A stretch of DNA of 41,138 nucleotides from a phage, in NCBI GenBank assembly GCA_033178465.1, contig GCA_033178465.1_4726.2. One strand, given 5' to 3'. Below the pieces are notes generated by a model. That model ran no database searches, was not told the origin of the DNA, and saw nothing but the letters and a program-made list of their open reading frames with translations. A program made the translations under genes and the position numbers. Positions 25,775-28,364 of this stretch are shown one piece after another (positions within the stretch are counted from its first letter, which is position 1; each line of letters begins with the position of its first letter).

Positions 25775-26008
25775 TTAGCAATGGTTGTTAGTTGCTTCTA
25801 TTTCGTCAAGATACGGTTCTACGTCATCGCCCTCCACGAATTCGTTGAACCAACAGTCAATGGTAGAAATAACCGGCGACTGGTGTTCACATTTCTTAGA
25901 TACCTTAAAAGGTACGTTATTATCCATCATACCGAGTTCGGGTCGAAAACGCCCGAAATGTTTCGCAGTCCAAATGTCTGGGACGATATGGTTGTTCATC
26001 GTAGTGTT
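25775..26008 (-). CDS. RNA polymerase beta' N-terminal subunit, proposed terminal exon (exon 4)
   Basis: In-frame translation [11 protein letters not shown]...[11 protein letters not shown] parallels E. coli beta' (DGD)QMAVHVP...ARALMMSTNNILSP, the region just after the catalytic motif. Begins right after a CTG that follows a conserved hairpin (26012-26037). The ORF track lists this as a 79-aa ORF 25775..26014. Confidence 0.5.
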   Translation of the reverse strand, partial: [77 protein letters not shown]

Positions 26009-26357
26009 CAGCATGAGTCGCTACCTCATACCCGCAGCTTTACCTGCAGCTTCCGGTGTTACCGGAATGTCCAGAATACATCTTATCCATATTCCAAATG
26101 GAACGTAGGACTTCCGCGCTGGATCTCGCTTGAGACCACGTATTCGTTGAACGTTCTCCTGAACGGAGCTTCGCTGCTGATCGAACATTGTTACGTACGG
26201 TAGGCGTCCCCGAAGGGATTGTCATTGAAGCCGCGTACATCCGCTACCTTGTTTCTACCTTATCGGTTCCTCTTACGAGGCGTAGCGGCCTTAGCCCTTC
26301 CCAGCAATTCACGGAATCCAAGCTCTTCCTTTCGGAAGACAGGGCCTATGATTAAGC
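26009..26357 (-). ncRNA. group I intron-like element C (ORF-less), approximate boundaries
   Basis: Minus-strand core elements in canonical order: P-like GAATTGCTGGGAAGGG (26315-26300), Q-like GATCAGCAGCG (about 26183-26171), R-like GTTCAACGAATACG (about 26143-26130), S-like TAAGATGTATTC (about 26090-26077), then a 3' hairpin with GTAGCGA loop and CTG before the exon. Confidence 0.5.
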
Positions 26358-26367
26358 GTCACCGTCG
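26358..26367 (-). CDS. proposed 10-nt micro-exon (C GAC GGT GAC) supplying the DGD of NADFDGD
   Basis: Lies between S element of intron B and P element of intron C; preceded by ...AACAG (candidate terminal G). It is the only placement found that restores the catalytic aspartate triad in frame. Inference only. Confidence 0.35.
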
Positions 26368-26743
26368 CTGTTATCGACTATATCTTCATCCTCGTTGCGA
26401 GGAGTCTCCCGTTTTGGTCTGTGTTTAACAGAACCTACTCTACTCGACATCGCGTCTTTCGATAGTCTGTGAGCATACATCTTAACGAACATTCGTGGAT
26501 TCCTAAACAGGTGAATGTTCTTGTTGAGATGCTTCGCTGCGGATTATTCCCGTCCTACCTCTTTTACCATACCCAGTTCATTACGCTGGCCCTCATCTGT
26601 GTCACCACGATGAGTTGGTGTGTAGTCCGATTACAGAAACTTCCCGTCAATTAGAGAGTTTTAACTACGTTCCTGTTACCAGAAACCAGATCCCGACGGT
26701 ATCAATAAATCAACGTAAGTTATTGATTTAATTGAAAAAACTG
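26368..26743 (-). ncRNA. group I intron-like element B (ORF-less), approximate boundaries
   Basis: Minus-strand P-like AATTGACGGGAA (about 26657-26641), P5-like GGGTATGGTAAAAG, Q exact AATCCGCAGC (26544-26535), R-like GCTCACAGACTATC (about 26478-26461), S-like GAAGATATAGTCG (26387-26375). The 3' tail after S is unusually short (7 nt), so the junction is uncertain. Confidence 0.5.
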
Positions 26744-26765
26744 AAATCTGCATTATCTAAATCTT
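26744..26765 (-). CDS. proposed 22-nt micro-exon (AA GAT TTA GAT AAT GCA GAT TT) supplying ...DLDNADF
   Basis: In-frame N-A-D-F codons at 26754..26744, immediately after the intron A 3' hairpin plus CTG and immediately before intron B. Inference only; the exon may start at 26762 instead. Confidence 0.4.
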
Positions 26766-27140
26766 CAGTATGGTTCGCTACACCATACCCGCACATACGT
26801 GCAGCTTACGTCTTTCACGTAAGAAGAGACTATATCTTTCACCCTCAGCATTATCTGGTCGGGGCCCCCATTTCGGCGGTCAGATGACCGGTGGTTTCCC
26901 ACGCCGCTTGGCCCTAACGCCCGTAAGCGATAGTCGTTGAGCACATCTCCGTTCTGGAGACTTCGCTGCGGATTCCCCAATCCTTGCCGCTTTTACCATA
27001 CCTGAATGATTAGTTCAGCCCCACACTCTGTTCCCAGGCGTGGTTGGTGGACAAGGCTCTAAGTAGGTTCCCGCATTAGGGAGTTCCTCGTAACAACATT
27101 TCTGCGTTACTGGGCCTAACGACCCTTTCAAGATCATCAC
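26766..27140 (-). ncRNA. group I intron-like element A (ORF-less), approximate boundaries (5' splice site estimated 27130-27146)
   Basis: Minus-strand P-like TAATGCGGGAAC (27080-27069), P5-like CAGGTATGGTAAAAG, Q exact AATCCGCAGC (26974-26965), R-like CTCAACGACTATCG (26941-26928), S-like AAAGATATAGTCTC (26839-26826), and a 3' hairpin GGTATGGT-GTAGCGA-ACCATAC (26795-26770). Confidence 0.55.
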
Positions 27141-28364
27141 GCTTAACCCGATGGTATTATCCTGCGGATCGCGTTTAACCTTGGTGATTTCAAGACATTG
27201 GTTACTGCTTCGGTCAAGTGATGGGTTTCGAACAAAACCACACACAATCCCATCGAACGGTGTATCAGCAATAAGCTCATCGTGCAGCTCACTCATCATC
27301 GGATGATAATTACGGACATGTTCCGCAACGAACGCACGTGCAGCTCTTGGTGAATAACCACGATGGAATAACTTGGATTGGATATGTTCTTTATTGGTTA
27401 AAGTAAATGGCGCGTATGGGAAATGCAGATGATAATAACGATGGTTCGCTGTTATCGAACTGATTACGGTACGCGTGGTGAATGGATGTAATGTACCTAA
27501 TATGTTTTTACGTGTAATACCTTTCTTCTTACCGATGAACTCATCGAAAATCGCCGCGTGGTATTGCAGCAGCTTCAATTGCACTTTCGCCATCCAGTTT
27601 TCTTTCTTTCTGGCGCTCAAAGGTGTTGTTGGGTGATAGATACTATTCAACGTACCGATAGCATCGATCGCACCTTCCATTTTGCTATCCGCATAACGAC
27701 CGGTTGGCGTATTCTCGATAACGAACATCATGGCCGCAGGAAAGCTGATATACTGACTGAAGAACTTATCACGATGGATACGGATGAATTCTCGTAGCGT
27801 GTCAACTTTCTCCGTGTTCTTCGGTCCACGTAACGTCGGTCCTTTATACAAGATCTCCATGATGCGATCGAAGTTCTGTATAAAGCTATTTACACCACGA
27901 CGTATCCCGAATACATCGAATTGCTGCTCCAGATAGTTCTTGAGTTCGATGGGTCGTTTTACATTTGGACGGTAACTGGCATCAATGAGCCACGTCATCG
28001 TTTCAAAGCTTTTGATATTCAACTCGCTTGCCAGCACGAGATGGACCAACGGGTTAATGAACGCATCGATTCCTTCAGGAACGCGCGCCCAAACAGTCGA
28101 ACGAATCTCTTGTTCTGCTGGGTAGGTTACAACCGTTTTACAGTTTGGACACACCGTGCCGAGTAGCTCACCACGATTGTAGAAACCACAACCACATTGT
28201 GGTGTGATATCCAACGTATCGCTGGAGTAAACACGGGTGATAAAACTGTTTAATTTCTTCTTCTCTTCGACGACTTTTGTATCGTAATCATTCAACAAAA
28301 TCGGCGTAAAAGGAAGTTCTGCGAGCTGTCTATCGAAACTCACGATATCGAGCATGATGGCCAT
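27015..28364 (-). CDS. RNA polymerase beta' N-terminal subunit, exon 1 (ORF as listed; true 3' end probably about 27130-27146)
   Basis: Zinc-ribbon [20 protein letters not shown] matches the beta' N-terminal Cx(2)C...Cx2C; [26 protein letters not shown] parallels [35 protein letters not shown] parallels NRAPTLHRLGIQ. The ORF then runs into intron-like sequence and stops without NADFDGD. Confidence 0.6.
   Translation of the reverse strand: [449 protein letters not shown]

Follow-up and report, generated by a model that had tools for sequence, protein, structure and literature searches.

How does a phage RNA polymerase retain its active site when no reading frame of the surrounding DNA encodes the catalytic motif? 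This question is raised by a stretch of phage DNA of 41,138 nucleotides (nt), contig GCA_033178465.1_4726.2 of GenBank assembly GCA_033178465.1, which we call the window. On its minus strand, starting at 28364, lies a gene of the phage's own non-virion RNA polymerase (nvRNAP). It encodes the N-terminal part of the beta' subunit (beta'-N) and is the homologue of phiKZ gp55 in a Goslar-like Escherichia coli jumbo phage. NADFDGD appears in no frame of the 41-kb window, where just two fragments of it were found, ...NADF (at about 26754) and ...DGD (at about 26372). Our analysis points, with a probability of about 90%, to a gene interrupted by three side-by-side group I introns that carry no functional open reading frame (ORF) and are separated by two micro-exons of 13 nt, with splicing predicted to bring the motif together.

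Gene layout and predicted product

The region is 98% identical to that of Escherichia phage Goslar, a nucleus-forming jumbo phage, and the gene for chimallin, which forms the nuclear shell, sits immediately upstream (30352-28457). A first-pass annotation, made from the sequence letters, had described an ORF of 449 amino acids (28364-27015) with a zinc ribbon and beta'-like segments that ends without NADFDGD. This ORF was confirmed, and in the following ~1.1 kb, which had been judged free of credible ORFs, none matches Pfam. An annotated ORF of 79 amino acids (26014-25775) begins 15 nt inside what we assign to the third intron. We divide the gene as follows, with the introns named A, B and C in gene order:

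Exon 1, 28364-27122, minus strand, 1243 nt; ends ...ATC TTG AAA GGG T, the last base being the U at the 5' splice site of intron A
Intron A, 27121-26757, minus strand, group I, 365 nt, no ORF
Micro-exon 2, 26756-26744, minus strand, 13 nt, ATAATGCAGATTT
Intron B, 26743-26368, minus strand, group I, 376 nt, no ORF, no P9
Micro-exon 3, 26367-26355, minus strand, 13 nt, CGACGGTGACGCT
Intron C, 26354-26000, minus strand, group I, 355 nt, no functional ORF
Exon 4, 25999-25775, minus strand, 225 nt including the stop codon; starts ATG AAC AAC CAT (MNNH)

On the plus strand, an ORF of 195 amino acids (25616-26203) shares sequence with exon 4 and intron C. Because it would be read from the strand opposite a conserved gene and a ribozyme, it is most likely spurious.

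Conceptual joining of the four exons produced an ORF of 1494 nt that encodes 497 amino acids and contains NADFDGD intact. Micro-exon 2 supplies the last two bases of a Tyr codon, then N, A, D and the first two bases of a Phe codon; micro-exon 3 supplies the last base of this Phe codon, followed by D, G, D and A. Since the introns lie within the codons of the motif, these codons are contiguous only in the predicted spliced RNA, as had already been proposed for the catalytic aspartate triad. Pfam family PF00623 (RNA_pol_Rpb1_2) matched the spliced protein with 36.9 bits (cut-off 25.3) and neither of the unspliced ORFs. The spliced product aligned with phiKZ gp55 (PDB 7OGP chain A, deposited as a fusion of PHIKZ055 and PHIKZ056.1) over residues 21-476 with an E value of 1e-74, gapless through the junctions. 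Equally gapless across the junctions were the alignments with PhiPA3 gp054 (LKAPNADFDGDQLNLTLMPD) and with the closest intronless homologues, namely P0002 (65% amino acid identity), P0003 and eight others. The P0002 locus (L105) is intronless and syntenic, with chimallin upstream and the same 212-aa gene downstream, and its DNA reads CTGAAAGGGTATAACGCTGACTTTGATGGTGATGCCATGAACCACCAT, colinear with the joined exons of the window. Excision would hence restore a conserved, uninterrupted frame of 1494 nt, colinear with L105, PhiPA3 gp054 and phiKZ gp55. Taken together, the full-length similarity, NADFDGD in the spliced product only, and the chimallin neighbour place the gene in the phiKZ gp55 family of nvRNAP beta'-N.

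In order to see how the spliced frame has evolved, we compared 22 Goslar-like genomes, namely the window, Goslar and 20 contigs from metagenomes or assemblies. When the same sites are used for splicing, each of the 21 relatives yields a 1494-nt ORF with a single terminal stop, and differs from the window by 18-45 nt and by 0-3 amino acids. Within the 26 nt of the two micro-exons, six positions vary across the 22 genomes (1251, 1254, 1257, 1260, 1263 and 1266 of the coding sequence, CDS), and all are third codon positions. The variants GCA/GCC and GAT/GAC of micro-exon 2 are synonymous, and so are GGT GAC and GGG GAT of micro-exon 3 in the predicted frame. These results show that the spliced ORF is under purifying selection. 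So few amino acid changes against so many nucleotide changes, and micro-exon variation confined to third positions, are not what a decaying gene or separately translated fragments would give.

Cores and splice sites of the three introns

We scanned the region with the Rfam group I model RF00028. Intron B matched at 26734-26352 with 50.7 bits, above the gathering score of 50, and thus has a group I core outright. Intron A (27142-26806, 29.7 bits, E 3e-5) and intron C (26316-26112, 16.8 bits, E 0.26) scored below it, the match to C covering the 5' half only (P3-P7, model positions 50-157); for these two, the core is established by combined evidence. Because Rfam covers only the 5' half of intron C, we built a covariance model of the 3' half, R1 (P3', P8, J8/7, P7' and P9-P9.2), trained without B or C on seven related introns (A of the window, L021-B', T2P, LucasX, L028-1, L066 and L058-3). 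With 43.8 bits (E 5e-10), the whole of R1 matched intron C at 26124-26000, the match ending exactly on the predicted terminal G. R1 gave 98.3 bits on intron A, itself a training sequence, and aligned intron B with 65 model positions, the P9 domain, deleted. In the family as a whole, for which the window, Goslar and 82 further loci yielded 20 matches, 90% of the cells pair and 15 of the 17 modelled pairs changed on both sides. The covariation score was reached by none of 500 shuffles, slid controls were far lower, and P8, P9.1 and P9.2 of intron C are among the helices it supports.

The three minus-strand cores of the first-pass annotation were thus recovered by Rfam and, for C, also by R1. The Q element AATCCGCAGC, noted earlier as exact in two introns, stands in A (26974-26965) and B (26545-26536); C has GATCAGCAGC instead. 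The S elements lie at 26838-26828 (A), 26386-26376 (B) and 26084-26074 (C). Five ORFs of 39-71 amino acids within the introns have no Pfam match, in agreement with the earlier view that no homing endonuclease is encoded, and the ORF that marks many a mobile intron was therefore not found here. A permissive-threshold Rfam scan of the whole window and a tRNA scan revealed no further introns and no tRNAs. All three introns are preceded by U and have G as last base (26757, 26368 and 26000). In each, the guide pairs with the last bases of the preceding exon, forming P1 with U.G at the cut, and with bases at the start of the following exon, forming P10; the terminal G is the omega-G.

The position of intron A follows from an empty site. 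Compared by blastn, Goslar is without a 367-base block present in the window. It reads ...ATC CTC AAA GGT TAT AAT GCC GAC TT/intron B, as opposed to ...ATC TTG AAA GGG T/365 nt/AT AAT GCA GAT TT/intron B in the window (slashes mark intron boundaries), so that micro-exon 2 is contiguous with exon 1 in Goslar, where the counterpart of exon 1, gp247, is 98% identical. The intron-A-free allele AAA GGT TAT AAT therefore sets intron A at 27121-26757 and exon 2 at 13 nt. The guide occupies the very start of the intron (27121-27112, CGUUAGGCCC). Its GCCC (27115-27112) pairs with GGGU (27125-27122) as P1, and its CGUUA pairs with UAAUG, bases 2-6 of micro-exon 2, as P10. The second base of the intron (27120) is G in the window (CGUUA) and A in the 17 other genomes with intron A (CAUUA); owing to this G, P10 of the window holds G.U instead of A-U. 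Compensatory changes in P2 and P9.1 were found among 13 variants of intron A, and the P9.2 loop reads GUAGCGA (26781-26775).

In intron B, a 9-bp hairpin separates the 5' splice site from the guide (26699-26687). The first part of the guide, CCGUCG (26699-26694), forms P10 with CGACGG, the first six bases of exon 3; the second, GGAUCUG (26693-26687), forms P1 with CAGAUUU, bases 7-13 of micro-exon 2. Among the 21 of the 22 Goslar-like genomes that have B, 16 combine CAGAUUU with GGAUCUG, five combine CCGACUU with GAGUCGG, and none has a mixed pair, which amounts to two fully compensatory changes. The intron ends ...GAUAUAGUCGAUAACAG/ and has no P9, P9.1 or P9.2. As P9 is entirely missing, only 8 nt follow the S element; the shortness of this segment had been seen before and counted as 7 nt. 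Goslar carries at the position of the missing P9 an insert of 1065 nt, in which a 14-bp stem (UUACGUGCACCGAC with GUCGGUGCACGUAA) encloses an ORF with HNH_3 and NUMOD1 domains, the HNH being I-HmuI-like.

Candidate sites for intron C had to have a U ahead of the intron and a G as its last base, keep the frame and preserve the motif spacing of the homologues. The sites GACGCU/UAAUCAU... and ...CACUACG/AUGAAC are the sole pair that satisfies all four. Other pairs (5' sites after GGU or GCUU, 3' sites after CATG or CTG) lose the third Asp, break the frame, lengthen the spacing or leave no terminal G. P1 consists of 3 bp, GCU (26357-26355; bases 11-13 of micro-exon 3) with GGC (26346-26344) and U.G at the cut, and P10 of UCAU (26351-26348) with AUGA of exon 4. 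Such short P1 and P10 helices mirror intron A and intron 3 of the jumbo phage locus L058 (GAU with GUC, UUUG with CAAA). The P4 5' strand lies at 26309-26299, the Q-like element at 26182-26173, the R element TTCAACGAATA at 26151-26141, the S element reads AAGATGTATTC, and the P9.2 loop GUAGCGA is at 26024-26018. P7 is GAAUA with UAUUC, compensatory relative to GACUA with UAGUC of A and B. P3 (UUCCGUG with CGCGGAA), P4, P6, P7, P8 and three 3' hairpins can be traced in the sequence and recur in the minimum free energy fold (z = -2.7). RNAalifold on the population variants of C found wobble changes only and no double compensations, and so carries little information on this intron.

These boundaries alter the exons of the first-pass annotation, which had rightly postulated two micro-exons and given them 22 and 10 nt (26765-26744 and 26367-26358) rather than 13 nt each. 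The junctions of A and C had been misplaced. Exon 2 had been given 9 surplus nt at its 5' side and exon 4 another 9, its start having been put at 26008 instead of 25999, while exon 3 lacked 3 nt. Joined in that way, the product would have about five extra residues found in no homologue, and the start of exon 2 conflicts with the empty site of Goslar; the product does not read ...DLDNADFDGDNTTMNNH.

Probable intron mobility and insertion sites in other jumbo phages

The set of introns differs among Goslar-like genomes. Most have A, B and C without an HNH ORF, as the window does; L007, L011 and L012 have B and C only, and Goslar has C and the HNH-bearing B. Intron A is present in 18 genomes and exactly absent from four (Goslar, L007, L011 and L012), the presence/absence pattern of a mobile intron. 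Alleles with and without A are distinguished by five synonymous differences within ~20 nt either side of the site (CDS 1234, 1236, 1242, 1251 and 1254), and L009 is a recombinant. This pattern suggests that A arrived by homing with co-conversion. Intron C was found in all 22 genomes, although the ORFs used to retrieve them depend on intron C or A. Among 5.8 billion protein clusters, no intronless Goslar-like allele above 65% identity was detected. The core of intron A (26865-26974) matches the left end of Escherichia phage Av-05 with 81% identity over 110 nt, and 26764-26940 is ~69% identical over ~175 nt to introns adjoining DNA polymerase genes of Av-05 and other E. coli phages, which hints that introns may be exchanged between unrelated phages of the same host.

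Intron B has been replaced in one relative. L021 (GCA_958337185.1, contig CATVLE010000006.1) has A, then a different intron 2 nt upstream of the B site (L021:5620-5968; GAT/.../TTTGATGGTGACGCT, NAD/FDGD; Rfam 56.5 bits), then C. The replacement looks like a mosaic: ~115 nt are 80% identical to the P7.1/P7.2 region of intron A, and 38 nt are 97% identical to P4'-P6 of intron C, which suggests recombination among neighbouring introns. We also considered a twintron and rejected it: the introns stand side by side with coding micro-exons between them, and in relatives A is independently absent and B independently replaced.

Group I introns were also found in the same beta'-N gene of other jumbo phages (a slash marks each insertion site):

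T2P and other phiKZ-like phages: N/ADFDGD, Rfam 80 bits
LucasX: KA/PNADFDGD, Rfam 54.7 bits
L066: NAD/FDGD
L048: DFDGD/
L028 (L028:4674-6055, IMGVR_UViG_3300031933_000083): NAD/FDG/DALN, two introns with a 9-nt exon TTTGACGGT (FDG) between them
L058 (L058:4644-6164, IMGVR_UViG_3300046328_000321): RN/PSL, RA/PNAD, NAD/FDG and FDG/DALN, four tandem introns
L062:4663-5834 (IMG/VR locus): two group I matches (35.5 and 29.5 bits) flanking an intact NADFDGD

The four introns of L058, an IMG/VR contig of an unrelated jumbo phage, score 79.1, 87.7, 68.5 and 68.4 bits with Rfam, all above the gathering score, and enclose micro-exons of 12 nt (CCAAATGCTGAT) and 9 nt (TTTGATGGT). The second intron of L028 contains a long ORF that is HNH-like in appearance, a candidate endonuclease gene. 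With the three sites of the window included, at least nine distinct insertion sites fall in ~120 nt, eight of them within ~40 nt, in a locus survey that was biased against split motifs, an intact NADFDGD having been one search pattern. Collectively, our results point to the active-site motif of beta'-N as a probable insertion hot spot, apparently undescribed.

Splicing model, rival readings and known systems

We propose that the primary transcript would carry all three ribozymes. Each would find its splice sites by means of its guide, through P1 with the last bases of the preceding exon (U.G at the cut) and through P10 at the beginning of the following one. Each 13-nt micro-exon would accordingly serve twice, its 5' part as P10 of the upstream intron and its 3' part as P1 of the downstream intron. 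Because these two parts do not overlap, the three introns could in principle splice independently and in any order. Removal of all three would join the four exons into the 497-aa product with its intact NADFDGD. The introns themselves are probably selfish elements that accumulated at an extremely conserved target, and B still has its HNH homing endonuclease in Goslar and has probably lost it in the window.

Several points weigh against this model. Splicing is read here from comparative sequence only. ONT-cappable-seq of phiKZ, under the conditions chosen, gave no sign that its predicted introns are spliced; the gp55 structure nevertheless implies a joined product. The matches of introns A and C lie under the Rfam gathering score, C with only 16.8 bits, and P1 of C is only 3 bp. 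The family covariation leans towards structure, the alignment having been fitted to the model. Since the two sides of the P1 helix of B are ~55 nt apart, linkage contributes to their pairing, which could partly reflect shared descent. The splicing efficiency of B is uncertain, most group I introns having the P9 that it does not have.

One alternative is that the locus has decayed, the 449-aa and 79-aa ORFs being remnants or separate small subunits, the introns dead relics, and no beta'-N with NADFDGD arising here. Gene callers and the Goslar GenBank and RefSeq records do list separate ORFs, with the 79-aa one as hypothetical. We nonetheless hold decay to be very improbable in view of the 0-3 amino acid against 18-45 nucleotide changes in the spliced ORFs of the 21 relatives, the synonymous nature of all micro-exon variation and the co-variation of the intron B guide with its exon. 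In addition, introns B and C are present in Goslar, which is cultured and viable, and no other NADFDGD is encoded in the window. The nvRNAP is needed for middle and late transcription in phiKZ-like phages, which also counts against decay. Another alternative accepts splicing and doubts that all three introns are autonomous: C or B would need its neighbour or a protein or helicase cofactor, or the similar A and C would cooperate and sometimes skip the micro-exons. This we consider unlikely. The 3-bp P1 and partial Rfam match of C and the lack of P9, P9.1 and P9.2 in B would fit dependence, and cooperation is made conceivable by the UAGGCCC close to the internal guide sequence and the P9.2 GUAGCGA hairpin that A and C share; exon skipping has precedents in Twort orf142, where two similar IA2 introns enclose the 23-nt exon, and in engineered tandem Tetrahymena introns. 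However, the introns vary independently, A being present or absent, B replaced in L021 and B found with or without HNH, and each has its own P1, P10, core and terminal G. P1 helices of 3-4 bp also occur in A/C-type relatives, such as L058 intron 3, and translation of the joined sequence indicated that splicing from the 5' site of A to the 3' site of C would shift the frame.

A further alternative concerns why the stack persists rather than how it is removed. Instead of being purely selfish, it could be kept for the benefit of the phage, as protection or a weapon against co-infecting relatives, or as a timing gate on the catalytic subunit. An intron-borne HNH in an RNA polymerase gene of PhiPA3 gives a competitive advantage over phiKZ, and Goslar carries an I-HmuI-like HNH in B; the crowding of insertion sites, of which different jumbo phages have at least nine in ~120 nt, and the clustered synonymous changes around the site in alleles with A point the same way. 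The introns of the window, however, encode no endonuclease, and selfish homing by itself would lead to crowding at a conserved motif, which leaves a benefit rather doubtful. In the same speculative vein, the NADFDGD stretch could be a battleground in which successive introns, some armed with HNH, invade sites only bases apart, each destroying the nuclease targets of its rivals. Stacks of three, as here, or four, as in L058, would then persist because they act as layers of immunity or weaponry among co-infecting nucleus-forming phages, a tentative picture that we would not favour at present. The uncoupling of transcription from translation by the phage nucleus might make dense ribozyme clusters with exons of 9-13 nt tolerable.

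If the predicted splicing model holds, accurate group I splicing takes place with exons of 13 nt here and of 12 and 9 nt in L058, and each micro-exon here would be taken up completely by its two roles, in P10 of one ribozyme and in P1 of the following. The locus would then offer a natural test bed for minimal exon length, splicing order and exon skipping. There is also a practical consequence for Goslar, a model nucleus-forming phage. Its annotation (NC_048170 167622-170910; L001:3137-6425) has entries for a 423-aa 'RNA polymerase beta subunit' (gp247), one Intron_gpI, the HNH endonuclease gp186 and a hypothetical protein of 79 amino acids, whose ORF starts 15 nt inside intron C; it records neither this intron (L001 5846-6200) nor the division into three exons. 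The reference thus holds a truncated subunit and a hypothetical protein in place of one gene (three-exon in Goslar, four-exon here), which is of consequence to anyone who wants to express nvRNAP or knock it down. A probable hot spot of intron insertion in the active-site motif of a viral multisubunit RNA polymerase also ties in with the recent evidence that intron endonucleases in jumbo-phage RNA polymerase genes mediate phage competition.

Compared with known systems, the arrangement is less singular than the first-pass annotation implied, since Goslar has the HNH-bearing B and C, phiKZ has one intron in the motif and L058 has four in tandem. The Goslar locus, with gp247, Intron_gpI, the HNH gp186 and gp185, shares introns B and C with the window at the same sites and at 98% identity, but has no intron A and carries the 1065-nt HNH_3 and NUMOD1 module in P9 of B. 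In phiKZ, the same gene (PHIKZ055 and PHIKZ056.1) lies next to chimallin and is interrupted in the same motif, and the 3' domain of the intron in the phiKZ-like T2P belongs to the same family as A and C. This phiKZ gp55 intron is mentioned in the literature and implicit in PDB 7OGP. In contrast to the window, with three introns at different positions and no HNH, phiKZ has one intron, no micro-exons and an associated HNH ORF, gp56, of which T2P retains a remnant. The PhiPA3 gp210 intron lies in a virion RNA polymerase beta gene and bears an HNH that gives a competitive advantage (Birkholz et al. 2024). As in the window, a group I intron interrupts an RNA polymerase gene of a chimallivirus at conserved residues of the catalytic region, and its HNH resembles that of Goslar intron B; the differences are the virion polymerase, the beta subunit, another motif, a single intron and an endonuclease with a demonstrated competitive role.

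Stacked introns and short exons are known from other genes. Very small exons between group I introns occur in organellar genes. Genes with two or three introns have been reported in Bastillevirinae and gut "Jug" phages. According to the summary of Landthaler and Shub (1999) in PMC10136302, orf142 of Staphylococcus phage Twort contains three group I introns and an exon of only 23 nt, for which skipping was shown. It is a different gene, and its short exon of 23 nt compares with two consecutive exons of 13 nt here and with 12 and 9 nt in L058. In the 23S rRNA gene of Coxiella burnetii, two group I introns likewise flank a short exon and skipping was observed, but the exon is 34 nt long and the gene is a bacterial rRNA gene, not a phage protein gene. 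Our literature search, with several key papers outside its reach, returned no description of a Goslar-like three-intron gene, of Goslar intron C or of 9-13-nt exons between phage group I introns. In summary, the kind is already known, both as stacked group I introns and as an intron in the gp55 motif, and what appears to be new, as far as the literature searched goes, is that such introns are predicted to be stacked in the active site of an RNA polymerase and to leave exons so short.

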